Virus record (IMG/VR): IMGVR_UViG_3300021961_000038
Coordinates: 32,001 to 96,000 of that record
Source: a virus
Reading direction: 5' to 3' (one strand)
Length of the DNA: 64,000 nucleotides
Shown: piece after piece, positions 5,498-33,600 of the stretch
How positions within the stretch are numbered: the stretch's first letter is position 1
Layout: every line of letters starts with the position of its first letter
Position numbers and translations under genes: made by a program
The notes under the pieces: model-generated
The model's input: the letters and a program-made list of their open reading frames with translations, nothing else
What the model was told of the DNA's origin: nothing
Databases searched by the model: none

Positions 5498-5695
5498 TTG
5501 GACGCTCTGGTAAAGCGTTATGAAAAAGAAGTCAGCACAATCACAGAAGAACTGATCAATCTCTGCTATTACATGAGAGGTGGTTTACAGTTGCACGAAG
5601 CATATCACACCACACTCGAAGAAAGAAAACTAATAAGCAAGATGGTTGAAAACCACATGAAGGTTACCAAAGATAGTGGTGTTAATTTTCTCTAG
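5498..5695 (+). CDS. gp51-like baseplate hub assembly domain, probably expressed mainly as a -1 frameshift extension of the gp26-like gene
   Basis: LCYYMRGGL...EAY....EER.LI resembles gp51-like domains; only a TTG start without a clear SD; frame open back to 5459. Confidence 0.6.
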   Translation: MDALVKRYEKEVSTITEELINLCYYMRGGLQLHEAYHTTLEERKLISKMVENHMKVTKDSGVNFL

Positions 5696-6309
5696 GAAGC
5701 GGCTTTTTTAGCGGCCTTTTGTGCTTGTTGAACAGCACGATGTTTTGCAATTTCCTGTTCCCAGCGTCTTACCTTTTCGCCACCGGTCATCTGTCCATGA
5801 ACAAAACCTGGAATTCCATCGCTGGGTGTTGGAGCAATCTTTTGTTGCAGTTTACCAATTAGGCTTTTTTCGTATTCATCCTGGCCACGTTTCATTCCTG
5901 TAACGGTACCCTTGTATGCTTGACCCACAGTTGAACCAACGGCCTTAGCACCTTTTCCTAATGCACTAGCACCCTTGGCAATGCCCGAACCCACGCCCTT
6001 GGCTACCATGCCCAAACCTTTCATGATTCCGCCCTGTCCTTGGCGTTGAGCCACCGCGGTTAGATGCGGAGCAACGTCGCGACCAGCGACGCGGCCGGTT
6101 TTAGAGTTTATCCACTGTGCACCGTGCCAAACATATGTTTGATTGTCCAAACCAACAACGTTAGTGCCCTTGGGAACGATCGGTCCCTGTGCTTTAGCCT
6201 GTTTTACACCCTGTTGATATCCTGTCTTAGCACCCTTTACAGCACCTTGAATACCCTTTTTAAGTTGTGTAAAAACACCTGCTTCATCTATAACGTCATT
6301 TATTTTCAT
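5692..6309 (-). CDS. basic Gly/Lys/Ala-rich protein, possible internal head protein
   Basis: 205 aa; AAGGAG SD; CTAAATA late box at 6337-6331; N-terminus MKINDVIDE resembles cleavable leaders of T4-like internal proteins (inference). Confidence 0.55.
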   Translation of the reverse strand: MKINDVIDEAGVFTQLKKGIQGAVKGAKTGYQQGVKQAKAQGPIVPKGTNVVGLDNQTYVWHGAQWINSKTGRVAGRDVAPHLTAVAQRQGQGGIMKGLGMVAKGVGSGIAKGASALGKGAKAVGSTVGQAYKGTVTGMKRGQDEYEKSLIGKLQQKIAPTPSDGIPGFVHGQMTGGEKVRRWEQEIAKHRAVQQAQKAAKKAAS

Positions 6310-6349
6310 GGTTCGAACTCCTTGTGAATGTATTTAGCGTGATATATGA

Positions 6350-6847
6350 TAATATATTGGTAAGTGAACTACGTTCACTTGTGTTTTCGCTATCGCTCAA
6401 ACACATTTATTCCTTATTATATGGAATTAATAATTGCGAAGCAATTTAGCATCATGTAGATTGTTTCAGTCAGACGGAACCTGTTAAAGGGTTCCATCTA
6501 ATCTTGAACATCATGTGAGTTCGTCACAGCCAAGACTGGAAGTAGGTGTTTGTTTATACACAAGTTCAATGGGCTCTAACCTTTCCCAACCTACATCGAC
6601 ATCACGAAAAAATCTGCTTTACCGCTTTACCGCTTCGCGGATCGCTTCGCTACCTCCTGCTTCGTTCCTTTGCACGGAGTTTTTATGAACTATGTTGTGT
6701 TTTTCGATTGCTAACAGTCAATCTACGCTAACCAGTGAGCCCAATTCTTTTGATGGCCTATCTCCCAATGGGGGTCGATTAACGTGTACGAGTGTCCGTG
6801 TCACGGGTACCTTTTACTCAGCGGTATTACAAACTGGCCCGCCAACC
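6350..6847 (-). ncRNA. candidate large structured non-coding element (ncRNA and/or replication origin), family not recognised
   Basis: About 500 nt without a credible ORF in an otherwise gene-dense genome; many complementary segments (6456-63/6719-26, 6471-81/6490-6500, 6542-47/6589-94, 6571-76/6737-42, 6514-18/6524-28, hairpins 6362-80, 6380-6405, 6432-46). Confidence 0.55.
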
Positions 6848-7288
6848 TTATGTGTTAGTATTTTTTGCCTGCTCTTGAAGTGCCTGTCGCAATTTGTTTG
6901 ATCCGCCAACCCTACAATTAATAATTCCGTTATAATAGTCATCCGTTTCTAATACACGGCGGTCAAATTGCTCTCTTGCCTCTATGTAGGACATTTCTGC
7001 CCTTGATCTACAAAAATATAATACTTCTCTTGTGAATTTTTCTGGTCCCAATTGATTAACGTCGGCAATAAGAGCATCCGAGGATCCCCAATATTCCTGC
7101 CAATCACTTTCTTTGTGCCCGCGTCTTTTATTCTTTCTGCCTTTGAGTGGTGGTTTTGTGGTTTTAAACTTTGCTAATTTCTTGCCTATGTACTTGCGAC
7201 CAGTGGTTGTATTGGTAATTAGATACACAAACCCTTCATATTCTTCCGGAATTGTGTCGATTGATTGTCCACGATATGTCCACTGCAT
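6848..7288 (-). CDS. compact GIY-YIG endonuclease (Seg/DenA-like catalytic domain only)
   Basis: GFVYLITN..TGRKYIGKK, YWGSS, conserved E (IEAREQ) and YYNG.I; 146 aa with no appended DNA-binding domain. Confidence 0.85.
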   Translation of the reverse strand: MQWTYRGQSIDTIPEEYEGFVYLITNTTTGRKYIGKKLAKFKTTKPPLKGRKNKRRGHKESDWQEYWGSSDALIADVNQLGPEKFTREVLYFCRSRAEMSYIEAREQFDRRVLETDDYYNGIINCRVGGSNKLRQALQEQAKNTNT

Positions 7289-7306
7289 AGTGATACTTAC
7301 CGAGTA

Positions 7307-7534
7307 CTAATCTTGTGTGTCTAAATTCTGACTTTGCCTCTTTTGAGCCTTGAGATTTTTGCGTTTTTCTTGAATTTCTTTGCGTCTTACGGTAGCCAAT
7401 CTTCGAATGTCACTTAAAATTACACGAGCCTTTCTTCCTGTTTCGTCAAACCCTTTAACTTCAAATCGTTCCTGTGCATTATAGTAATCCATAACGGCTT
7501 GTACCAGTAACTCGTGTGTGCTTTTATTTGACAT
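7307..7534 (-). CDS. small basic protein, Hc1 (histone H1-like)-type
   Basis: F..KG....GRKARV.L..I..LA..RRKEI pattern resembles the Hc1-like family; basic C-terminus. Confidence 0.5.
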   Translation of the reverse strand: MSNKSTHELLVQAVMDYYNAQERFEVKGFDETGRKARVILSDIRRLATVRRKEIQEKRKNLKAQKRQSQNLDTQD

Positions 7535-9311
7535 CTTCTATTACTTCCGTATCGTTGGAATATGATGTGAATCCGTTTTCCTTTATTACTTTTAATATAT
7601 TATTAACCCTGCTTGATAATTCGTCTTTGTGTGAAATTAGATAAATGTTTTTCTGTCTTTCACGTGCCATCTTCTTAAGAACAGCAATAGAACTTTCAAC
7701 ACCAGCGGCATCCATACCACTATCAATCAATTCGTCAATAAACAACAAATTAATACTGTGATATAGGCTTTCCCAAACGTCACGGAACGTCCAACTCAAT
7801 GATAAGATGAGTCTATTTCGTTCACCTCTGCTGAGGTTATCAAAGTCTAAGTCGCGTCCTAGTTCTGTAATTTCCACAGTTAAATCGTTCTGAAACACAA
7901 CCTGATGTGGTAATCCTAGTGTTTCTAAATAGTATTTTAATCTCTTGTTTAAGAAGTAAAGGTTCTGATCAATAATACGTTTACGTATAAACGAGTCTTT
8001 TGAAGTTAATAGTTTATATAAAAACTCCTGATGTTCCTTAATCTCAGTTAAGGAGTTCATATGATCCCAGGTTACCTGTTGCAATGCTGTATTTTGAAGT
8101 TCTGTCATCTGTTCAGCATAAGGGTTAACCTCAGTTTCCTTTTCTTGTTTTCTTTCTTGTAAACTTTTTAGATTATTTTTATGATTATATGCTTCTTCGG
8201 CCGCATCATAATATGTTGTAGGCTTGCCGTTGATATCTCCAATGTCGTCAATCTTGGTTTGAACAGCCAAAGTTTCGCCAACAACACCGTCATGGTATTG
8301 TTTACTTTCGTTGTAATCGTTTTGCTTTAGTGCAAGTAGGTCTTGATGTGCTTTGTCATGTAATTCTTGACCACAAGCATAACATTTCTTTTCTTGAACC
8401 TCTTCTAAATCTTTTTCATAACGTTTTAATTGTCTTTCTGCTCTAATCAATGTGCTTTCAAGACTTGCTTTTTCTTTTTGCAAAGATGTTAGTTCGTTAT
8501 TTTTTGTATTCCATTCTTCTGCAAGTTTATGATTGTTAATTTCTTTTTCAATATCAACTTGTTCAAGTTCTGTAATAGCACGGGATAGTTTATTGATTTC
8601 ATCAATCCTTGAACTACCCCATGCTTTACTTTTAATCTCCAAGTTATCAATTGATTCTTGGACTTTCTGATTTGCAGATTCAATTGAACGAATTTTAGCA
8701 TCTTCGGCCGTGATTTCATCACGAACGACTTTCATTTGTTCTTTTAGTTTTTCTGCTTTTTCAGATAAGATGGTGATACCTAACAGTTGCTCAATAATTT
8801 CTCGTTGAGCGTTCGGATTTAAGGAAAGGAAAGGCTCCGTATATGTGTTAAGTGCCACCAAATGCTTGAACATGGTATGACTCATACCAAGTAATCTATC
8901 AATTTCTTCTTGTGTTTTACGTGAATCACCCTGTGATTCGTCGATGTCATCTGCTATTTGTTCGTTGTCTTCAATGTAAAACTTTAATAAATTCTTTTTA
9001 CGGCCTCTTTCAATTCTATAACTCTTGCCGTTAACTTGAAATTCAACAGTAACCAACATATCTTTGCCGTTGGTTTTGTTTACTAGATTGTCTTTCCTAA
9101 TTTTTGTAAGTGCTTCACCGTAAAATGCATAACTTATTGCATTAATAATTGTAGTTTTACCAGTACCGTTACGTGACCCAGCATCATCACCACCTAGATC
9201 CATGTTTTCACCTAGTACAAGTGTTAAATGATCTCTATCAAAGTCAACGGCTTGGGTAGAATTACCCACACTCATAAAGTTTTTAACTGTAATTGTTTTA
9301 ATTTTAAACAT
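7524..9311 (-). CDS. gp46: recombination endonuclease ATPase subunit (gp46; Rad50/SbcC-like)
   Basis: KNFMSVGN, Walker A NGTGKTT, coiled coil with CYACG zinc hook, LSRGE signature, Walker B LLFIDE, ISH. Confidence 0.95.
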   Translation of the reverse strand: MFKIKTITVKNFMSVGNSTQAVDFDRDHLTLVLGENMDLGGDDAGSRNGTGKTTIINAISYAFYGEALTKIRKDNLVNKTNGKDMLVTVEFQVNGKSYRIERGRKKNLLKFYIEDNEQIADDIDESQGDSRKTQEEIDRLLGMSHTMFKHLVALNTYTEPFLSLNPNAQREIIEQLLGITILSEKAEKLKEQMKVVRDEITAEDAKIRSIESANQKVQESIDNLEIKSKAWGSSRIDEINKLSRAITELEQVDIEKEINNHKLAEEWNTKNNELTSLQKEKASLESTLIRAERQLKRYEKDLEEVQEKKCYACGQELHDKAHQDLLALKQNDYNESKQYHDGVVGETLAVQTKIDDIGDINGKPTTYYDAAEEAYNHKNNLKSLQERKQEKETEVNPYAEQMTELQNTALQQVTWDHMNSLTEIKEHQEFLYKLLTSKDSFIRKRIIDQNLYFLNKRLKYYLETLGLPHQVVFQNDLTVEITELGRDLDFDNLSRGERNRLILSLSWTFRDVWESLYHSINLLFIDELIDSGMDAAGVESSIAVLKKMARERQKNIYLISHKDELSSRVNNILKVIKENGFTSYSNDTEVIEDVK

Positions 9312-10333
9312 TATAAGTTCCTATACAAGTCTAATAATAGACTGCTCTTGAAGTTTTCACTAGAAATTTTAGTAATTTGTTCAGTTACAATTTGATCAAC
9401 GCTTTCAAACTCAACATCTCCTCGATCGGTACTTAAATCACTATCTTGATTTTCTGTATCGGGTAGTAAACTAATTTCTCTTAGATTATACTGTTTAGAA
9501 AACGTTTCTTTCATAAATGTAGCCTCTTCATATGATACATCAATATCTAATACAACACGAATATACAAGTTTTTAGGACTCAGTAATGTATCTGTTTCGT
9601 GCAACAGGTTAGAAAGTTTCATAGTTCTATACTTTGGACAGTCAGGCCAATCAACAAACTGTGGTTGTCCTCCCCATTCTAGTATCATCATACCGCGTTC
9701 ATCGTCCCAAGCATCGGCGTAGTTGTGTGGAAAGGCATTGCCGATGTACCAAATATTTTTATTATTTTGTCTTTTATGGAAGTGACCACTGAATACAAGT
9801 TCTTGATTAGTAAAATCGTCCGCTTTGATTTCGCCTGTGTCAGGCATATCAACCATGGCATTCATTTTAAAGTGTGGAAGTTCAAAGTGTCCAAACATAT
9901 ATTTGCATTTCATTTTAGAAACTTTCTTCCATTCTTCACCAACCAACCAAGGAATCAATGCAACATTGTCAATTAACATTGGTTCGTTGACCACAGTGAC
10001 GCCGGGTACGTGTTTACCAAATACCACAGAATGAATTTCACGCTTGTCTTTGTAATACAAATCGTGATTGCCCGGAAAGAAATAAAACTTTTTAAAAGCC
10101 GCACCAAGTTTTTCCAGCGATCTCAAACTAGCATCCATGGTGGTTAGATTTAACGCACTTCTATTATGATGCCAATCGCCGGTGAATATACCAACATCAC
10201 AGCCATTTGCTTTTGCTTGTTCAATATACCAATCAACAAATGCTTCACAATCGTCGTTGTGAATTTTACTATTGGACTTCAAACCAAAGTGTATGTCCGT
10301 GAAAACAGCCGCTTTTTCGAATAAATTTGCCAT
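9311..10333 (-). CDS. gp47: recombination endonuclease nuclease subunit (gp47; Mre11/SbcD-like)
   Basis: Metallophosphoesterase motifs DIHFG, GDWHH, GNHD, GHFE, SGHFH; adjacent to gp46. Confidence 0.95.
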   Translation of the reverse strand: MANLFEKAAVFTDIHFGLKSNSKIHNDDCEAFVDWYIEQAKANGCDVGIFTGDWHHNRSALNLTTMDASLRSLEKLGAAFKKFYFFPGNHDLYYKDKREIHSVVFGKHVPGVTVVNEPMLIDNVALIPWLVGEEWKKVSKMKCKYMFGHFELPHFKMNAMVDMPDTGEIKADDFTNQELVFSGHFHKRQNNKNIWYIGNAFPHNYADAWDDERGMMILEWGGQPQFVDWPDCPKYRTMKLSNLLHETDTLLSPKNLYIRVVLDIDVSYEEATFMKETFSKQYNLREISLLPDTENQDSDLSTDRGDVEFESVDQIVTEQITKISSENFKSSLLLDLYRNL

Positions 10334-21676: not shown

Positions 21677-24600
21677 ATGGCATATAGCGAAGACAATCAA
21701 ACACCAATAAGTGTTGAAAATAAAGACAAGCACCGTAATAGTGCTGATCTTTTACCTTTGTATTTTAGAACTGAAGCAAATAAAAAGTTCTTAGGTGCAA
21801 CACTTGACAGTTTAATTTCTAAAGGTAATTTAGAAAGATTAAACGGTTATGTTGGTTCAAGATATTCTAAAAATAGCAAACCCTCAGACGTTTATATTCC
21901 TGAACCAACTAATAATAGAAGAAGATATAATTTTCTTCCTAGCGTTGTAATTCGAGATGATTTTGCGGATAAGACAGAATGGGTAGCAACGTATGATGAT
22001 CTAATAAATCAAATTAATTATTTTAACGGTGAAACAACCAATCATAGTAGATTAACATCAAGCGATTATTACGTATGGAATCCACTAATTGATTTTGACA
22101 AGTTTGTTAATTACCGTCAATATTATTGGCTACCTAATGGTCCTTCTCCGGTAACAGTAACAGGAAATTCTGAAGGTACTACAAGCACATTTCAGGTAAC
22201 AAACAGCGGAAACGAAGCATGGGTGTTTACGCCTAACGGTTTTAGCAAAAATCCTATATTAACATTGTATAGAGGTGCAACATATGTCTTTGATGTTAAT
22301 GCAGTAGGACATCCTTTCTATCTTAAAGTATCAAAACAGATTGGTGCAGTAGATCAATACAATGATGGTGTACAAAATAACGGAACAGAAGTAGGAGTAG
22401 TTACTTTTACAGTACCGTCATCTGCTCCAGACACATTATATTATGTCTGTGGTAGACATCAATCAATGCAGGGATTTTTTGAAATTAAAAATGCCGAAGA
22501 AGAATTAACGGTTAATATTAATACAGAAATTTTAGGTAAGAAAGAATACACCAGTGCTAACGGTGTTAAGTTTACTAACGGACTTAAGGTTAACTTTGAA
22601 GGAGAGGTTACTCCTACAACTTATAAGAATAGAAATTTTTATGTTGAAGGTGTTGGAGATAAGATAAAACTTATTCCAGAAGATCAATTAAGAACTCCGG
22701 AAATTTACAGTTCAAACTTTGACTATGAGTTTGATGTTGAAGAATATGATGACACTCCGTTTGATGATGTTGAGAGTTATCCAACAAAGCAAGAATATAT
22801 TACAATTAACAGAAGTGCTCAAGATAAAAATCCATGGAGCAGATATAATAGATGGGTTCACAAAGATGTTATCGAAGCATCTGCAACATACAATAACACA
22901 GTTATTGTTCTTGATGAAAATCAACGTGCAAAAAGACCTATTATTGAATTTAATCCTAATATTAAATTACATAACTTTGCCTCTTATGGTAGAGATTATA
23001 TTGATCTAATCGATACTCGAACAACAGATGTTATGAGTGATGTTGAAGGGTCAATTGGATACTATGTAGATGAAGTTATTCTTAAAAAAGGAATGCGTAT
23101 TATTTTCAATGCAGATCCTGATATTACTGTTAAAGGTAAAATTTATGAAGTAGACTTTGTTGAATTTGAAGGTAAATCAAGAGTACATTTAGAAGAAGTA
23201 TATACTCCTGTTGTAGGCGACGGTGTTGTTGTTGTCGACGGCGAAGGTAATCAAGGTAAGAGTTGGTTTTATAATGGAACAACTTGGATTCAAGGACAGC
23301 AGAAAACTTCTTTAAACCAAGCACCTAAATTTGATTTATTTGACAAAGCAGGTAATAGTTATTCAGATGAAACTTATTATAGTGGAACAACATTTAAAGG
23401 TAATGAACTTGTTAGTTACAAAGTAGGTAGCGGATCCAATGACGTAATTTTAGGATTTCCTATCTCCTACCAAAACGTAAACAACGTTGGTGATATTGTT
23501 TTTGAATTTGATTGGGACGATAATACTTTTAATTTTACAGACAATACAACAATTAAAACGGTTGACACAGCAAGTGGATATGTTAAAATCTTTTCTGATG
23601 CTACAACAAGTCGTTATGAAGGCGGATGGTTAAAAGCAAAACAAAAAACAAGACAAGGTATTATACAGTTAAATGATATTGAACAAGCAACAAATACATT
23701 ACAAATAGTTTGTATTGATAATCCACATCTTTATCTCAATGATATGGAGATCACAATTGAGTTTAATGATAAGGTATACAAACCAACAACTGACTTTAAT
23801 CTTATTACAAACGAAGTTACAAACACAGTATCTTTGGTGTTTTCAAGTGTAACAATACCTGCAAATACAAGAACAGTTTTAAAAGTTCATACAAAACAAA
23901 AACCAAATGCAAATGGTTTTTATGAACCACCTCTTAACTTAACAAACAATGCTGAAAACAACGACTTAACTACATTTACTTTAGGTAGTATAAGTGACCA
24001 TTTCAAAACTATATTTGAAAACAATGTTAACATTACAGGCGAAGCATTTGGACCTAACAATTCAAGAGATTTAACAAATATTCATGTAAGTGGATTACGC
24101 TATGTTAAACACGGTGGTTCGTTATTGAATAGTATTTTTAGTTTAGTTGATTATGATACTAATCTTATTAAAGCAATTAGAAAACAAGCAAAAGATTATA
24201 ACTTCTTTAAAGAACAGTTTTTAGTTAAAGGCTTAGAACTTGAATTATCAGGTAACGTAAGCAATGATGTTGACGACATTCTTTATGCAATGTCATTGGA
24301 TAAAAAAATATCATCACCTTATTACTATTCTGATATGGCTGGATTTGGTAAAAAAGTATCCATTAGAGAATATACAAAGTCAGCACCAACACAACAGGTA
24401 TTTGGTTTAGATTCTAACTTTAAAATTTCCGAACTATCAAATAGATCAATCTATGTTTATGTTAATGATCAACAATTATATTATGGTCAAGATTATGAAT
24501 TTGATCCTGTCGATAACGGTGTAACTATTTTAAAGAAAACAGCAGTTGGCGACAAAATTACAATCAAAGATTATGATACAGTTGGTAACGTCATTCCACA

Positions 24601-27600
24601 AACACCAACTAAGTTAGGATTATATCCTAAATTTAAACCAGAAATTTATACTGACACGTCTTATGTAACTCCTCGTGAAATGCTTAAAGGTCATGACGGA
24701 TCAATTACAGCAACATACGGCGATGTAAGAGATGACTTATTATTAGAATTTGAAAAGAGAATTTACAACAATATTAAAGTTTCTTACAACAGAGATGTGT
24801 TTGATATTAATGAATACATACCAGGTGCATTTAGAGATACAGAATATTCTTTAGAAGAATTTACAAGAATTATGCGTAATGATTTTGGATCATGGGCATC
24901 ATTATATCAAGTAGATATCACAACAAATAATGTAACGGATGTTGATAATCTTTTTACAATAAATTATAATTCAACATTAGATACAATTAATAACGAATTA
25001 TTGCCAGGTTACTGGAAAGGAATCTATAATAAGTTTTACGGAACATGGAGACCTAATATTGCTCCGTGGGAGTGTTTAGGTTTTAGTGAAAAACCTGATT
25101 GGTGGGAAAGCGAATACGGTCCAGCACCATACACTTCTGGTAACAAAAAATTATGGGATGATATACAACTAGGAAGAATACGATATAAAACAGGAGAACA
25201 AATTAATCCTGTTTATGCGAGATCAAAACTGTCAAGCATTATTCCTGTTAATGAGTATGGTGATTTATTAGATCCTGTTAGAGTAGGAATTGTTGGAGAA
25301 CTTAATAATGCAACATTAACTAGAGACTTTGTGTTTGGTGATTTTCATCCAGCAGAAATTTCTTGGAGAACATCTAGTTGGTATCCATATGCATTACAGA
25401 TTGCATTAGCACTAACTAAACCTGCACAGTATTTAGGTAGTTTGTTTGATACATCACAAAATGAAATTGCACCTAGTGGAAGTTTATTGTATAAATCATC
25501 AGGAAAAATATTAGATTTAACTGATGCAAAAATACACACATTAGATTATAATAATGTAAAGCACTTTGGGTTAGGCTATCATGTTTTTGTTGTTGAGTAC
25601 TTAAAAAGTTTAGATAAACCTGTTAGTGAAAGTTATTACACAAAAATTTCTAAAACAAGTATGAACTTGGTTTATAAGTTAGGCGGCTTTGCGGCTAAAA
25701 GCAGATTGCGTGTTTTATTAGAAAGTTCAAACCCTGACAGCAAAGAAACAAGCATTTTCTTACCGGCAGAAAATTACGAATTAAAATTTAGAACATCTAA
25801 TCCTGTAAAATCATCAAAACTAAGTGGAATTATTGTTGAAAAAACAGAAAGAGGATATCTAGTTAGAGGATATGATAATTTACAGCCTTACTTTACAGTT
25901 TATGATCCAATCCATCAAAAGGACGATCCTGTTATTAATGTTGGCGGAACAAGTGCCAAATATGTTTTATGGACTAGAGAGAAATTCTATGGCATAGGAC
26001 AAATTGTCGAATCAGGCGGAAGATATTATCGTTGTAAAGAACAGCACACAAGCACGAATGAATTTGATCCTAGCAAATTTACAACATTACCAAATCTTCC
26101 TTTAACAGGCGGTGCCGAAGTACAAAAACCAAGACGATGGAAAACTAAATCTAAAGTTGTTCCATACGGCACAACTTATCAAAAAATACAGGATGTTTAT
26201 GATCTTATCTTAGGTTATGGTAAATGGCTAGAAGATGAAGGTTTTATATTTGACAAATATCTATCAGAATTATTAGAAATTCAAAACTGGGAATTCTCTG
26301 GTAAAGAATTTTTATTCTGGACCACACAAGGATGGTCATCAAACAGTGTTATTGCATTGGCTCCTTTTGCAGACGGAATTAAATTTAGTTTCAGTGCAGG
26401 ACAAGTTGACAATGTATTAAACAGTTTTTATGATTATACTATTTTAACAGCAAGTGGTAGTATATTACCGCGTGATCAATTTAGCACAACAAGACAAGAC
26501 GGTGCGTTTACAATTAGACCTCGCGATACAAATAACGGAATTTATTTTATACAATTAAATCTTGTACAAAAAGAACACGTTATTGTATTTGATGATAAAA
26601 GTCAGTTCGGTGATATTCTTTATGATCAAGAAGCAGGTTATAGAGCAAAACGTATTAAACTATTAGGGTTTAAAACTAGTGAGTGGAATGGTGATTACTA
26701 TTCTCCAGGTTTTATTTACGATGAAGCACAAATTACAGATTGGTTACAGTTTAAAGATTATTATCTAGGTGAAGTTGTAAGATATAAAAGCGTTTATTAT
26801 AGTGCTAAAAAGTTTATTCCTGGAGTAGATAAATTTGAAATCAATGATTGGATATATCTAGGAACAAAACCGATTGCTGAACTTTTACCAAACTTAGATT
26901 ATAAAGCAAGTTCTTTTGAAGATTTTTATAGTTTAGAAAGTGAAAACTTTGATGTTAATCAAACTAAATTTGCACAACATTTGGTAGGATATCAAAAGCG
27001 TACATATCTTGACAATTTAATTCAAGACGAAACTACACAGTATAAATTCTATCAAGGATTTATTAAAGAAAAAGGAACAAAAAATTCAATTGAAAAAATT
27101 CAACGTTTAAGAATTGAAGGCGTTGACACAAACATTGATATTGACGAAGAATGGGCATTTAAGGTCGGAAGTTTAGGAAGTAATTCGACTGTTAAAGAAA
27201 TAGAGTTTGCATTAGATGAAACATTAAATGTCGATAATCCTCAAGGTTACGATTTTGTTTCTCAACGATCTACAGGAACTACAAGCAGTAACATTATTAA
27301 GTTATTATCAAAAGATATTGCTGTTAAGCCATCGGACTATAATAACAATCCTTGGCCGTTGTATGATAGATCAGTATCTGAAAACACCATTGATTATCTT
27401 CAAAAACTTCCTGTTGCAGGAACACCTAGGCTTGATGATGTAACAATAACGCTTTTTAATTATGATGATATTATTGGTAACGCTGTTGTAAATTCTTTAA
27501 AAGAAGGAGATACTATCTGGCTTGCTAAAAATAAAAGAAAAGATTGGGACGTTTTAAGATTAACAGGACTTAGATCTAGATTAACACAAACAGAAAACAA

Positions 27601-30600
27601 AACACCTAGCATTGACGGTAACGGTATTGTAACACTATACACAGATTTACCGCACGGTTTATCACAAGGATCAATTATTTCAATTAAAGACTTTGATCCT
27701 TTAATTGATAATGTTTATGAAGTTAATAGTGTATTAAGTTCTGATACATTTACTATAAGAACAGATTATGATACATTACCTTTGCAGTCTGATAGTTCAA
27801 CAGGCAGTTTATTAGAATTTGTTTCAATCAGATTAGCAAACATTGACGATTTAAATGATCTAAAAGAAGTAACAGAATTTGCTGTGGGAAGTAAAGTATT
27901 TGCTGATTCAGATTCTAACGGTAATTGGGGAGTATACGAAAAGTCAACAGCATTTGTAAGAAACAAATTTGGATGTGTTAATAACATTCCTGATCAATCA
28001 TTTGGTCAAACAGTTATTTCTGGAGACTCAGGAAGATTAATTGTTGTTGGTGCAACACAGGGCGGCGATGAAGGTAACGTTTATATATTAAGAAGAAAAT
28101 TTAATACTGATATATCAACACTTGAAGGAGTACAAGGTTTTGCTCTCAGTGCCAACGCACTAGACAATCTTGTTGATGGAAGACCTAAGTTCGGTTGGAG
28201 TTTAGCACTATCACAAACAGATACACATTTGGTTGCAGGTGCACCGTTTGCCTCAAACTTTAGATCTACAAGCGATTCGAATAAACCTAAATTCTTTTTT
28301 GGAGCAACAGGTTCTGCTGTTCAAGGAAGCGTAAAATCAGGCGTTATAAAAGTTTTAAAATACAACACACTAACAAACTTGTATGATACAGAATATGTTT
28401 TAGGATCACCAGATCCTCAATCAAATGCAGAGTTTGGTTATTCTGTTGCTATTTCAGATACAAGATTATTGGTAGGTGCCCCTGGACAAACAGGAGATCA
28501 AGGTAATGTGTTTATTTTCGAAAAAGTTAATGACGATTGGCGTGTTGCAACAAACTATAAATTAGGATTTTCAAATGCTAGATCGGGAGATAGATTTGGT
28601 GAAATTATTGCTTCATCAAAAGACCTATCAACTATTGCCGTAAGTGCGTCAGGCTATGAAGTAAACGAGGATAGCACTTATGACATTTCAGAAGGTGCTG
28701 TTCATATCTATACATATAACACATCAACATCTTCATATGATTTATTGCAATCACTAACAGCATCTACACTTGGTCTTGGAATAACAACAGGAGACCAATT
28801 TGGTAGAGCAATTTCTTTAAATGATGACGGAACAGTTTTAGTTGTTGGTACACCTTATAGTGATATTAAGACTAATAACAATGGAGCAGTATACTACTTT
28901 AAAAAATCAGGTAATACATTTGTTCTTGATCAAGTAATACTTTCGCCAGAAAAACTTTTAGGAGAAAGATTCGGAACCAACATTTCTTTGAATTCTGCAG
29001 GTGATTCTTTTGTGGTATATGCTGAGGGCGGTAGAAACGAAACCGAAACAGTATTTGATCAATACATTACACCAAATAATCCTGCTAGTGGTGAGAACGA
29101 TTTCCCAACTACCTTTGATGCAAACACAACAAAGATTACAGACTTTACACAAGCAACAGGTACAGTTTACTCTTATACTAAACTAGGAACTAAATTTGTG
29201 TTTGGTCAAAAGTTGGTTAGTTATGATATTTCAACTAATGATGGTTTTGGTCAAGGATTAGATTATTCCACTAATAGTGTATTAATTGGTGCACCGCAAG
29301 GAAATCTTGATACAGGAGAGCAAACTGGTACGTTATATGTTTACCAGAAAGAAAAAACTGCTGGTTGGAATCTATTAAGACAAGAAACAGAATTTACTAA
29401 CCCTTATAAAATTAAAAACGTATTCACATATGATACAACAAAAAGTGAAGTAAAAGATTATTTAGAAGTGTTAGACCCTGCTAAAGGAAAAATTCCTTTC
29501 CTAGCAGAAGCAGAATTAAGTTACAAAACAAACGTAGATCCGGCAATTTATAGCGTTAGTGATAAAAATGTAAATGTTAATGAGAATAAGCCTTGGACTG
29601 ATGAACACGTGGGCGAGTTGTGGTGGGATTTAGACTCGGTTCGTTATGTTTATTACGAACAAGGAGATACAGAATTTAGAACTAATAACTGGGGAACATT
29701 ATTTCCTGGATCGTCAATTGACATCTATGAATGGATTGAATCAGACATATTACCAAGTGAATGGAATGAAATTGCAGACACCAACGAAGGTATTGCAATA
29801 GGATTTAGCGGACAAGCAAGATATGATAACAACACACTAGCAGTTAAACGTGTGTACAATTCAACCACAAATTCATTCCAAACAAGATATTACTATTGGG
29901 TTAAAAATTCAGTTATTGTTCCAGATGAAAATAACAAAAGAAGAATTCCTGCAATTGAAGTAGCGAATATCATTACTAATCCTATTGCTTACGGAATTAA
30001 AAGTTTACAAGTTTTAAGTAAAAATAGTATTAGTTTGTCTAATATTAAAACTACATTAGCAGATAAAAATGTAAGTATTGCAATTTACTATTCTAATGTT
30101 GAAACAGATTTACCTGAACACAACGAGTGGTTACTATTAAGAAATAATCAAACTGCTAAGATTGATCATAGTTTATTAATCAAAAAATTATACGACAGTT
30201 TAGTTGGTTTTGATGATCAAGGAAATGCTGTTCCGGATCCTAACTTACCTGCACAACGAAAATACGGATTACAGATACGTCCAAGACAGTCTATGTTTAA
30301 AGATAGATTACAGGCGTTAAAAGTAGTGCTTACATTTGTTAACCAAGTAATGACAGGTGAAAGAATTGTTGATACTAAAAACATTTCAAAACTTCGTCAA
30401 AACGACCCACAACCAACTGCTATTTCAGGAAAATATGATGTTAAGGTTGATAACTTTAGCGATATAGAACTTATTGGAACACAGGAACTAATTCAAGGCA
30501 AACTATCGCCAGTGTTTAAAAATGGTCGTTTAAGTAAAGTTAATATTGTAACACAAGGATTTGGTTATAAAATTGCACCAGAAGTAGTTATTGTTGGTGA

Positions 30601-33600
30601 CGGTTCCGGAGCAAAAGTTCAAACTACTATTGATAGCAAGGGAAAGATTACCGGAGTTGAAATTCTAAAAACAGGAAAAAATTATACAACCGGCGAGTTG
30701 ACGGTTAGACCATTTAAAGTATTAGTAGATGTTGACGAAACAGCAAACAACTATTGGACAATGTACGAATGGAATTCGTCAACAGAATTGTGGACAAGAA
30801 CTAATACACAAACTTATGATTTATCACGTTTTTGGTCATATGCTGATTTTAAATTACCTACCTTTGATCTAGATACTATTATCAATTACAAAATTTCAGC
30901 ACCTTACCAGTTAGATACTATTGTTCCAACTGTTGGAGATTATGTAAGAATTGAAAACGCAGGCGACGGTAACATTATGATTCTACAACGTGTTGAATCA
31001 GGTGGAAGTTATAACAATGAGTATGAACTTGTTTATAAGCAAAATAGCACAATTAAGTTTAATGAAAACTTATATGACTATTCGTTACTAAATTTTGGGT
31101 TTGGTGGTTTAGAAAATTTTGATATTAACTTGTTTGATGAACAACCAATTACAGAAACTAGATTAATTTTAGATGTAATTCAAAACTATATTTTTGTTGA
31201 CGAGTTACGTCCTAAGTGGAATGATTTGTTCTTCATTGCAATCAAGTACGCAATGAGTGAACAGTTATTTGTTGACTGGGTATTTAAAACAAGTTTTGTT
31301 AATATTAAAAACAACATCGGCGGGTTTAGTAGAAAACTAAACTACAACTTAAACGATCCTGCATATATTGAAGAATATATCAAGGAAGTTAAACCGTACC
31401 GTTCGAGCATTAGAGAATTTATTACTTCATATGAAACGTTAGAACAAAGCAACATTGGTAACACAGACTTTGACTTACCAAGTTACTATAATAGTGAAAC
31501 TAAAAAGTTTGAAGTTTTAGATACTAACAGTGTTAAAATATCTGAGCAACCTTATGTTAATTGGTTCGACAACTATCAATATAGTGTTGGAGAAGTAAGA
31601 ATTAGTGACTCAGGCGAAGGGTATACACAAAATCCTTTGGTTGTAATAACTGGAGGTAGAGAAGTAAAACCAGATATCTTACAAACCAGTCCTTTCTTAA
31701 GTTTGGTTGATACAGATTATGATGCTACACATTTCTACATCAAGACCAGTAATATTCCTAATCATAATTTTGATTCGGAAAAACTTGAAAGACAAAATTA
31801 TATTTTTAAAATTGCTAGAACACCACAACAAGCAACTACTAAGGTTAGCACACAATTAGGTCCTATTGCTGTTGCAACTAACGGAGTTGTTATGTTTAAT
31901 CCTAAAGCACTTGAAAAAGAAAATAGAAATGGTGTTGCGTATCAAATTAATGCAGTTGCTAGTCATGTAGAACTTGGTATTGATGACGGGTCGGGTCATG
32001 CACAGGCAGAAGGTGTTTATCATTATCATTCAGATCCTAGATTAATGTATGAAAAAGATAAAACAACACATTCTCCTATTATCGGTTATGCTTTTGATGG
32101 ACATCCAATTTATGGTCCATATGCATATGAGAATGTTAGCGGACCTAGTCAAATTAAACTTATACAATCTAGTTACAGATTAAAAACAACACCACGTGCT
32201 GATGGCTCAATACCTAATGGACGTTACATTGAAGATTATGAATATGTTGCAGGTCTAGGTGATCTAGATGAACACAATGGTAGATATACCGTAACACCAG
32301 AGTATCCAAGTGGAACTTATGCTTACTTTGTTACTGTTGATCCTAATGATGTTGATAAAGCAGTATATCCGTATATCATTGGCCCTTCATACTATGGTGT
32401 TCCTTTAATACCAAATGGAAACTACGTATTACCAACAGGTGTACAAGAAGATGCACTTGCTCAAGCATTTATTTCTCGAGGAAAATTAAGAGAAATTAGA
32501 TTAACCAAAGAAGGTTCTGGATATACAACAGCACCAACAGTAAGTATTGTTGGCGGCGGTGGATCAGATGATGTTACCAGATTAGCAAAAGCAGTACCTA
32601 TTCTTAAAAATAAAAAGGTACGTATTAATACAGTCAAAATGAAGTTTGATAGATTGTCAAGCCAAAAAGTAATTCAAACTTTGAATGCAATTGATACATT
32701 TACAGCGTTACCTGGACAAGTTAAATTTAAATTAACGTATGTACCAACTTTAGATAAACGTAAATTTACAATTGATATCAATAACGAAACAGCATATATT
32801 GAAAGTTATAATATTAGTATTGCAACTAAAGAAAATGCTACCTACAAAGCACAAGAAGGATACATTATCTTTAACACACCTCCAGGCGATGGTGCAGTAG
32901 TAACAATCACATATCAAAAATCAATTGACCTAATGCAGGCAACTGATAGAATTGATTATTACTATTCTCCAACAGCAGGTATGCCGGGCAAAGATCCAGC
33001 ACAGTTAATGTCAGGGGTTGAGTATGATGGAGTACAAATTCAAGGTTTAGAATTTGGTGTAAGTGTGGGTTGGGATGGATTACCTTGGTTTAGTCATGGA
33101 TGGGATACATTCTCAGGATCAAATACAGATTATGCTTTTAGAGCCGACGGAAACACAAGTACATTTACGCTTCCTTATGTTCCTGCAAATCAAACAAATG
33201 TTAATATCTACTTTGACGGTGTAAGACAAGATCCAACTAACACTCCAACAATAGTTGGAGATGGAACCACAGACACATATACATTGTTGGTGACTCCAGC
33301 AGATGGTGTTCTAGTTGTGTTTAGACCAGATACTTCAGACGGAAGTTTAGCACCAACTGACGTTAACAATTTAGATACATTATTAAGCGGTGGTACTTTT
33401 GCTACTACTAACGGAGCATTTAATACAGCAGTTGGTCAGAACCCAGAAGATATTGAACTCGATGGTGATGGATTTGTAACACCAGATACAAGTCATGCTC
33501 CAGAAGAAGTCGTACCAGGACAAGTGTTTGATACATTTTCGATCAAGGTTTATAATTCACCTGCAGATGGTTCACCGATTATTAAAACTAATAGATACTA

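Follow-up and report, generated by a model that had tools for sequence, protein, structure and literature searches.

Does a small phage nuclease gene form one system with the non-coding DNA that directly follows it, or are the two simply neighbours? This question is raised by a 64,000-nucleotide stretch of viral DNA (hereafter, the window; positions 32,001 to 96,000 of the IMG/VR record IMGVR_UViG_3300021961_000038), in which a gene for a GIY-YIG nuclease of 146 amino acids (aa) (6848-7288, minus strand) is followed by a gap of 538 nucleotides (nt) without a credible open reading frame (ORF) (6310-6847, minus strand). An original prediction, made from the sequence alone, had proposed that this gap holds a large structured RNA which could serve the nuclease as guide, scaffold or primer. 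From the comparison with relatives presented here, three answers can be given: (i) the reading of positions 6355-6880 as a real, non-coding, pseudoknotted minus-strand RNA holds on comparative grounds; (ii) this element of ~500 nt is best explained, with a probability of roughly 0.55, as a free-standing gene of uncultured marine T4-like phages for a large compact non-coding RNA, expressed early, with a trans-acting partner for two short direct repeats that it carries; and (iii) its use as a guide by the nuclease is not supported.

As originally noted, the non-coding gap is large: it is the widest space between ORFs of at least 90 aa in the window, and on its minus strand there is no ORF of at least 30 aa inside it, except for two that overlap the gap edges. 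Relatives were gathered from IMG/VR through a nuclease-anchored scan (at least 600 stretches) and a scan for a motif of the RNA (at least 119 stretches), and three samples were analysed in detail: 80 nuclease-anchored loci, 80 motif-anchored loci and 33 loci anchored on the nearby gp46 gene (names such as L003, L084, L155 and L230 designate the relatives' loci used for comparison; L082 is the phage Melnitz). In 76 of the 80 nuclease-anchored loci, the stop codon of the nuclease is immediately followed by the gap sequence, with 69-90% identity by blastn, while the remaining four contigs end at most 24 nt past the stop. The whole element (6355-6880, minus strand) is supported by this conservation after the nuclease stop and by the structure counts: its 5' leader overlaps the final ~30 nt of the nuclease ORF, and its 3' end is a hairpin located before a late-type promoter. 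The latter corresponds to a box read from the sequence, CTAAATAC (6320-6327, minus strand), which we take to be a T4-type late promoter of the next gene and which marks the outer limit of the element.

The evidence for structure comes from a MAFFT alignment of 62 non-redundant sequences (hereafter, A1), to which a proposed structure of 76 pairs in 14 helices was applied. In A1, 89.8% of the cells are paired, versus 36.7-41.5% when the partners are slid; 38 pairs are changed on both sides (16-21 for slid partners), as are 361 cells (44-100 for slid partners); and the observed covariation score was reached by 0 of 500 shuffles. One small hairpin in the variable sub-domain of helix P3 is only 37.9% paired, the alignment being poor there. 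Wobble pairs are frequent, on the minus strand only (P3, for instance, has a U-G pair in 55 and a G-U pair in 56 of the 62 sequences) and, therefore, the fold belongs to the sense strand of the nuclease. The original prediction of a large structured RNA on that strand, which was to be judged by sequence conservation and covariation among homologous loci, agrees with the conserved sequence and the covarying fold of these 62 relatives. The single sequence folds modestly better than chance (z-score -2.76; 2 of 100 shuffles fold as well) and, in consequence, the case for structure rests on the comparative data.

A coding reading of the region, based on plus-strand ORFs of 57-69 aa in the gap and antisense ORFs of 60-93 aa in relatives, was rejected: column variability lacks 3-base periodicity (0.636, 0.631 and 0.673 over positions 1-160), and the pairwise indels, mostly of 1-2 nt, include 838 that are not multiples of three versus 192 that are. 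Rejected as well was a degraded C-terminal domain of a Seg protein, in view of the length of the best 120 nuclease relatives (141-177 aa) and of the maintenance of the region as structure. With a median identity of 84.3% to 57 relatives, the RNA core (6446-6605) is the best-conserved DNA of the neighbourhood, the corresponding values being 74.7% for the GIY-YIG gene and 70.4% for the gp46 gene.

In the fold deduced from A1, a pseudoknot is shown to join a variable 5' domain (P1-P4) and a core that is near-invariant (P5, P7 and P7.1), all of it on the minus strand. Ahead of the first helix lies a conserved leader of the form AGGCA-N9-10-AACAC-N-UAAGG (6848-6872), which here falls at the ORF end and which is kept whether coding or not, since it occurs after unrelated ORFs or in non-coding DNA in L101, L099, L135, L084, L115 and L122. 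In L084, L115 and L122, the stretch from a sigma-70-like promoter to the RNA (~100 nt upstream of the latter) contains the leader word AGGCA three times, at spacings of ~20-30 nt. The P1 hairpin (6842-39/6824-21) is 100% paired and invariant in A1, and it changes from GCGG/CCGC to CCCG/CGGG in L084, L115 and L122. P2 (6820-16/6793-89), with one pair that is U-A in 46 sequences versus A-U in 16, contains an inner hairpin (6810-06/6797-94) whose four pairs all change on both sides. P3 (6785-79/6731-25) is 99.3% paired, shows changes on both sides in three of its seven pairs and encloses a variable sub-domain that is swapped between lineages, and the P4 hairpin (6723-19/6710-06) is 98.1% paired, with five of five pairs changing on both sides.

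The core is linked to this domain by a long-range pseudoknot, GUUCA/UGAAC (6690-86/6568-64), which crosses P7, is 91.9% paired, changes on both sides in all five pairs and, when inspected by eye, is kept with other sequences in L105, L115 and L080. Between its strands, P5 (6679-76/6657-54; 89.3% paired; both-side changes in three of four pairs) displays an invariant loop, GGAACGA.G (6668-6660), and is followed by a hairpin of variable length (6605-6649), whose pair 6649/6605 is C-G in 22 sequences, U-A in 19 and A-U in 9, and which is reduced in the shortest relatives to a 2-4-bp stem with a GUAA, GAAA or GGAAAC (GNRA-type) cap. P7 (6594-89/6547-42) had already been proposed in the original prediction; it is 99.7% paired and covaries, from GUAGGU/ACCUAC to GCAGGU/ACCUGC, in L115, L084 and L122. 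Within it, P7.1 (6588-85/6573-70) is 99.6% paired and has a near-invariant 11-nt loop. Alternative core pairings (GUAGGUUG with CAAUCUAC; the P7.1 loop with UCUGACU; GUCGA with UYGGC) were set aside, being 99% compatible but invariant and, hence, uninformative.

The 3' module, in the same alignment, comprises two ~22-nt direct repeats that flank a hairpin, followed by two further hairpins. Repeat 1 (6509-6531) and repeat 2 (6450-6471) lie on either side of P9, an 11-bp hairpin (6471-81/6490-6500) that was also foreseen: it is 97.2% paired in the 62 relatives, its U-G pairs exist on the minus strand only, and its changes are limited to one-sided G-U ones. P12 (6405-6399/6386-80) shows both-side changes in seven of nine pairs, with 77.2% pairing in a ragged alignment, and has a conserved top, GAGCG-NNA-GCGA. 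In the terminal hairpin P13 (6363-6379), variable in sequence, five of five outer and one of two inner pairs change on both sides, 40-41 of the 62 A1 rows being without this region; no T-run follows the hairpin on the minus strand in the window. Other helices of the original prediction fared differently. The 8-bp long-range helix 6456-63/6719-26 was not supported (none of its eight pairs changes on both sides, and 37 of 62 cells are unpaired at one pair), as it fails wherever its 5' strand varies, this strand covarying instead with local partners. Equally, the 6-bp GC pseudoknot 6571-76/6737-42 found no support (66.1% paired; 0 of 6 pairs with both-side changes). The candidate helices 6502-06/6531-35 and 6514-18/6524-28 are 85-86% paired, with a both-side change in one of ten pairs. 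Regarding stable hairpins of another type, GCGAAGC-type words (a C-GAA-G triloop, G-C closed) appear on both strands, with one in a plus-strand hairpin after repeat 2 (6432-6446) and two in the minus-strand variable hairpin (6610-6650); words of this type are very stable DNA mini-hairpins.

The 8-mer that had been reported twice (6450-57 and 6509-16) is indeed present at both sites and represents the 3' end of the two ~22-nt repeats (6531-6509 and 6471-6450) around the 11-bp hairpin. Across the family, the repeat core takes the forms CAUGAAG, CAUGAUG, CGUGAAG, CAUAAAG and CAUCAAG (in a variant RNA described below, AGAUGAUG, AGAUAAUG and GAAUAAUG), and nearly every sequence has both copies of one form, the exceptions differing at one position, usually the last. 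In A1, columns 502/571 and 504/573 are identical between copies in 62 of 62 sequences, and 506/575 in 60 of 62. Pairing of the repeats with each other through the CAUG palindrome was rejected, because the CAUAAAG, CAUCAAG and AGAUGAUG variants break it. As for an internal guide, no A1 column covaries with the repeats in a complementary manner, the sole match (column 49) amounting to two sequences with no neighbouring pairs; no consistent reverse-complement 7-mer is found from -700 to +400 nt in 18 loci; and no complementary partner stands out in the 113-kb record. Readings of the repeats as box C/D-like elements, start-codon mimics, anticodon-loop-binding sites or translational-bypass signals were dropped, some of them because variants break the motif. 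The copies change in concert, need no mutual pairing and have no cis partner and, therefore, they point to a common trans partner, either protein or nucleic acid. It is unusual for two direct repeats to change together in this way, a signature that directs attention to a specific molecular partner.

The RNA does not correspond to any described family among those searched. With the Rfam 15 covariance models there were no matches at E-values up to 10 on window positions 5500-8000, and just three chance-level snoRNA matches (E 0.25-0.5) on 16 diverse relatives; in the same search, the T4 td and nrdB introns, used as positive control, were recovered at E 9.2e-8 and 2.3e-6, respectively. ARAGORN detected no transfer RNA (tRNA) or transfer-messenger RNA (tmRNA) gene in the 64-kb window or in the 113-kb record. 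The original statements that the element is not a group I intron, tmRNA or tRNA, and that its novelty would hinge on a search of Rfam, are in line with these results (no match to RF00028 or any other Rfam family for the RNA, chance-level ones aside for its 16 relatives). In the accessible parts of the literature on phage and viral structured RNAs, marine myoviruses and GIY-YIG nucleases, the RNA is not described (cf. PMC9004378; 10.64898/2026.10.21.760802). A structured-RNA screen across IMG/VR gives, in the sections available, candidates of 29-151 bases only, and its supplementary tables may hold pieces of the RNA (PMC10690425).

Regarding its distribution, blastn with three family members as queries gave no match in 50,697 deposited phage genomes, and a 26-base core motif matched twice in 185,579 species genomes, both times in phage-like contigs of one Neomarinimicrobiota metagenome-assembled genome (MAG) that carry the gp46-orf72-GIY-RNA locus. 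The RNA is, accordingly, phage-only in its distribution, and it apparently constitutes an undescribed family of large structured phage RNA that marine phages, all uncultured, have in common by the hundreds. At the same genomic position, some relatives (L230:1280-1700, L233:4650-5070, L013, L018, L058 and L077) carry a second form of the RNA. Its alignment to a covariance model of the RNA core (R1), on which the window scores 173 bits, is weak but extends from end to end: 32.7 bits for L230 (E 1.3e-4), 28.3 for L077 (E 1e-3), 24.2 for L013 (E 7e-3) and 16.6 for L233 (E 0.23). The core of this form is distinct, but its leader, twin repeats, GNRA hairpin, GAGCG-type hairpin and terminal hairpin are the same; the 3' module is clearly shared, with P9 replaced by a different hairpin with a GCAA loop. 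Contigs often break in this DNA: 26 of the 80 nuclease-anchored contigs (L003-L081) end at most ~510 nt past the nuclease stop, inside the RNA gene (equivalent to window 6340-6847), nine of them at 139-147 nt, and 12 of the 80 motif-anchored contigs have less than 500 nt ahead of the core motif. These breaks are probably due to branching of the assembly graph where co-occurring strains have DNA in common, as is the case with ribosomal RNA genes.

The nuclease presents the catalytic domain of Seg-family GIY-YIG proteins: it matches Pfam PF19835 (SegE_GIY-YIG; E 1.8e-33) over residues 3-123 of 146, and the nearest PDB fold to its AlphaFold model (pLDDT 87.5) is the catalytic domain of I-TevI (probability 0.97; TM 0.67 on the target; E 0.13). 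Past this domain, the sole extra feature of the model is a C-terminal helix (131-144), which coincides with the earlier description of the protein as a catalytic domain alone. A separate DNA-binding domain was not found in the 146 aa, and the best 120 relatives span 141-177 aa, longer forms not having been searched for. These 120 proteins, 78-100% identical, were the best of at least 8000 scored candidates, all of which pass an E-value of 0.001; judging by their sequences, the nuclease is a conserved short protein and not a truncated one. Orthology with DenA, the endonuclease II of T4, was rejected (BLASTP E 17), and phmmer against PDB sequences returned nothing. In Melnitz, the homologue (L082 3998-4438) directly follows the gene of the ribonucleotide reductase small subunit (nrdB), a position that is that of denA in T4, the nuclease being without sequence similarity to DenA.

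How tightly the RNA and the nuclease are tied together can be judged from the three samples and from deposited genomes. Among the 80 motif-anchored loci, a GIY-YIG gene is located upstream in 61 (directly in 58, with one small ORF between in three) and downstream in two (L084 and L122, directly), while in five there is no such gene over the 1200 nt upstream and 12 do not reach far enough to tell. In L155 (408-923) and L230 (731-1279), the latter a close relative with an 87% identical gp46, a PD-(D/E)XK nuclease (PF24608, E 1.6e-27; phrog_244, 'RusA-like resolvase', E ~1e-20) takes the place of the GIY-YIG gene, which suggests either non-orthologous replacement or competing mobile nucleases. 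In the gp46-anchored sample, an unbiased one (33 loci), 18 have the order orf75-GIY-RNA, two are cut by the contig end, four end too early, one combines the PD-(D/E)XK gene with the variant RNA, four have a 53%-identical GIY-YIG gene with the variant RNA, and four have neither. Moreover, in L084, L115 and L122 a terminator hairpin, with its T-run, lies upstream of a sigma-70-like promoter (TTGACA-17-TATTTT), after which come the leader and, finally, the RNA; read by eye, the RNA would be its own transcription unit in these three loci.

Sequence identities tell the same two components apart. In relatives whose gp46 is 74-77% identical to that of the window, the RNA is 81.5-83.6% and the GIY-YIG gene 68-75% identical; in those with a gp46 of ~60% identity, the values are 69-78% for the RNA and 77-86% for the GIY-YIG gene. 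These identities are discordant and, therefore, the RNA follows gp46, whereas the nuclease does not. Homologues of the nuclease exist in 755 deposited phage records, none of which has an RNA match by blastn; the whole genome of Melnitz, the closest deposited homologue (65% identical nuclease), contains no RNA according to the covariance model. The nuclease thus occurs without the element, a possibility that the original prediction had itself raised as a counter-sign. Finally, the alignments of relatives contain no unstructured hypervariable guide-like segment, the variable parts being covarying hairpins. The proposal of the RNA as guide, scaffold or primer of the nuclease is not sustained by these observations, i.e., another nuclease or none at the RNA, the nuclease without RNA, discordant identities and no guide segment. 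It can be inferred from the sequences that the GIY-YIG gene is an exchangeable small-nuclease cassette beside a conserved RNA gene, a neighbour and not a partner. This cassette is possibly Seg-like and mobile: the identities of the nuclease disagree with those of gp46 and RNA, and the slot is otherwise filled in some loci, yet the gene is present in 18 of 18 complete loci with gp46 identity of at least 74%. With equal reason, the GIY-YIG and PD-(D/E)XK proteins may be structure-specific nucleases, analogous to each other, that belong to the recombination module. In any case, neither of these two readings needs the RNA.

The genes around the element, all on the minus strand, follow the order gp47-like (9311-10333), gp46/SbcC-like (7524-9311; phrog_77, E 5e-102), a basic protein of 75 aa (orf75; 7307-7534) between gp46 and the nuclease and, behind the CTAAATAC box, a gene of 205 aa (5692-6309). 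The orf75 product has no Pfam or PHROG match; in the protein-atlas clusters nearest to it (score 0.94), 15-29% of the members carry the Hc1 histone-like family. It could be a nucleic-acid-binding partner, which is to be taken as a lead only. Elsewhere in the window, a single ORF of 4638 aa (21677-35593, plus strand) presumably encodes a giant structural protein of the kind which, in the sections available of papers on pelagimyophages, is called VrlC (PMC12379486). The window is part of a 113-kb record with a CheckV completeness of 32%, which, together with the 6-11% of relatives of 21-40 kb, implies a genome of ~350 kb; contigs carrying relatives of the locus measure 261-335 kb. The phages that carry the RNA are, at ~350 kb, probably of the jumbo class. 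One Neomarinimicrobiota MAG includes two phage-like contigs that are nearly identical (335 kb and 153 kb), either through mis-binning or as a hint at the host.

According to the favoured reading, that of a free-standing gene for a large non-coding RNA, transcription of the RNA would accompany, or immediately follow, that of the early recombination genes gp47-gp46-orf75-nuclease, and the transcript would end at the hairpin before the next late promoter. The nuclease cassette would have lodged next to the best-conserved DNA of the region, and the twin repeats would most likely be a pair of sites which a single shared trans-acting factor reads or cuts. Weak support comes from RNA-library contigs (at least 85% likeness; four runs from four studies), which span relatives of the nuclease gene as well as of the RNA, one contig of 413 nt lying entirely on 6457-6856; at 85%, none covers 5600-6309, where the gene is poorly conserved and the hole is uninformative. 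Several points weigh against this reading. The RNA-library data are assembled contigs, which show presence and not transcription, strand, ends or abundance, and DNA carry-over is possible. A GIY-YIG gene is adjacent, on either side, in 63 of the 68 informative motif loci, and co-transcription in both orders could be a sign of a functional tie; besides, the slot, when recognisably filled, always holds a small nuclease. No trans factor for the repeats was found among the A1 columns, the 18 loci or the 113-kb record. Lastly, single-stranded DNA with the polarity of the RNA could, in principle, adopt this fold.

A bolder reading and four rival explanations deserve to be considered beside the free-standing RNA gene. 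According to the bolder, tentative reading, abundant marine jumbo phages would possess a new class of large RNA, catalytic or ribonucleoprotein in nature, whose near-invariant pseudoknotted core acts on the twin repeats or presents them to a co-evolving trans partner. In its catalytic version, the core would, for instance, excise or exchange the ~60-nt hairpin segment between the repeats; in either version, the nuclease genes nearby would simply take advantage of conserved DNA. Among the rivals, it is possible, although not probable, that the element belongs to a replication origin, where a pre-primer transcript would position an R-loop, the repeats would be iterons for a phage initiator, and the downstream hairpins would be single-strand initiation signals. 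Like iterons, the two copies agree in any one genome but vary from genome to genome; the element is part of the replication/recombination block, beside baseplate genes at an early/late boundary; the DNA that follows is AT-rich (GC 0.335 at 6300-6499); and there are GAA-type mini-hairpin loops on both strands. In the analogous ColE1 RNA II pre-primer and T4 oriE, a long folded transcript is also found near AT-rich DNA, with genome-specific direct repeats. Nevertheless, here there are two repeats only and no turn of the GC skew at the element; near-invariant loops and joints, together with a pseudoknot, all conserved above the protein genes, exceed what known primer RNAs usually need; and GNRA-type loops and G-U pairs, both typical of RNA, are present in the hairpin that separates the repeats. 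Markedly less probable is a use of the fold in minus-polarity single-stranded DNA, during replication, recombination or packaging, instead of in RNA. Stable DNA mini-hairpins are known to contain C-GAA-G loops and tandem G-A motifs, and these do occur in P5, in the variable hairpin and in the plus-strand hairpin after repeat 2, but a 500-nt multi-domain pseudoknotted fold with many G-U pairs is far more typical of RNA, a promoter and a terminator bracket the element in three loci, and the element is represented, as a weak argument, in RNA-library assemblies.

A ribozyme derived from, or convergent with, the core of a group I intron, historically linked to a GIY-YIG homing endonuclease as in T4 td, is also a distant prospect. 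Its appeal lies in the succession of helices, namely the 5' pseudoknot strand, two hairpins, P7, P7.1, the 3' pseudoknot strand, a hairpin and the 3' strand of P7, which would parallel the order P3/P4-P6/P7/P7.1/P3'/P8/P7' of subgroup IA introns. The covarying pseudoknot crosses P7 with two hairpins between its strands and may correspond to the P3/P7 pseudoknot of group I, where the P4-P6 domain lies between the strands. GNRA loops, a T4-like phage host and a GIY-YIG neighbour are further points of resemblance to the T4 introns td and nrdB. In contrast to these, which it recovers, model RF00028 finds nothing at E-values up to 10 in the RNA or in 16 relatives; no interrupted gene, exon, splice site, P1 or terminal G can be assigned, the upstream ORFs ending with stops; the downstream gene differs between relatives; and no joints appear in RNA-library contigs, this being weak evidence as contigs drop rare forms. 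Somewhat less remote, but still doubtful, is a partnership in which the folded RNA, or else same-strand single-stranded DNA, would serve the small single-domain nuclease as scaffold, guide or target. The frequent adjacency in either order, apparently as one transcription unit (63 of 68), and the nuclease without DNA-binding domain speak in its favour; against it, the RNA also occurs with a PD-(D/E)XK nuclease or with neither, the nuclease occurs without RNA, their similarities disagree, there is no unstructured variable segment and the element is single-copy in the record. The resemblance to HEARO/OMEGA RNAs, the guide RNAs of the RuvC/HNH proteins IscB and TnpB, lies in a structured RNA that abuts a small nuclease gene and starts at or within the ORF end. 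Unlike them, the protein here is GIY-YIG (PD-(D/E)XK in L155 and L230), there are no transposon ends or guide segment, pairing with the nuclease is not obligatory, and Rfam gives no HEARO match. Another form of partnership would be Ssn-like hairpin recognition: as far as the available text goes, Ssn proteins are single-domain GIY-YIG nucleases that recognise folded hairpins beside their own genes, their targets (SRM) being hairpins of 20-50 nt present in many copies and flanking the gene on both sides (PMC11893778). The present locus shares with them a minimal GIY-YIG protein next to a folded nucleic acid, but it has one single-copy element of ~500 nt and a nuclease of SegE-type Pfam family, and an Ssn/SRM system was rejected, since the 113-kb record contains no match to the published SRM pattern, for which 20 shuffles give a mean of 0.1.

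Among the RNAs that phages often carry, GOLLD and ROOL are large, ornate, of obscure function, and were revealed by comparative analysis of environmental sequence. The present RNA resembles them as a large, elaborate phage-borne non-coding RNA found comparatively, and differs in that it has no Rfam match to either and no tRNA genes in the 64-kb window or in the 113-kb record; to our knowledge, its twin concerted repeats have no counterpart in GOLLD or ROOL. For the nuclease cassette beside an RNA gene, the closest precedent is T4 SegB, a GIY-YIG homing endonuclease encoded in the T4 cluster of tRNA and stable-RNA genes. In the available parts of its description, SegB recognises conserved tRNA-gene DNA, so that the DNA of an RNA gene can be a recognition site, and the nuclease spreads jointly with its flanks (PMC2330249). 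Both loci have a Seg-type GIY-YIG gene of a T4-like phage directly beside conserved structured-RNA genes (PMC2330249), and the discordant similarities of the nuclease described above fit a SegB-like spread. Unlike T4 SegB, the nuclease here is a 146-aa protein without DNA-binding domain, in nearly all the relatives sampled, and the RNA is one pseudoknotted molecule of ~500 nt instead of tRNAs.

The adjacency of a nuclease and an RNA need not mean a guide system: the evidence gathered here favours cassettes that lodge by a conserved RNA gene, as in the case of T4 SegB. The RNA itself is widespread, being represented in the nuclease-anchored (at least 600) and motif-anchored (at least 119) IMG/VR stretches, yet without match in the deposited phage genomes searched. 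Large, highly structured RNAs of obscure function are rare and, historically, they have proved to be ribozymes, ribonucleoprotein scaffolds or self-assembling particles.

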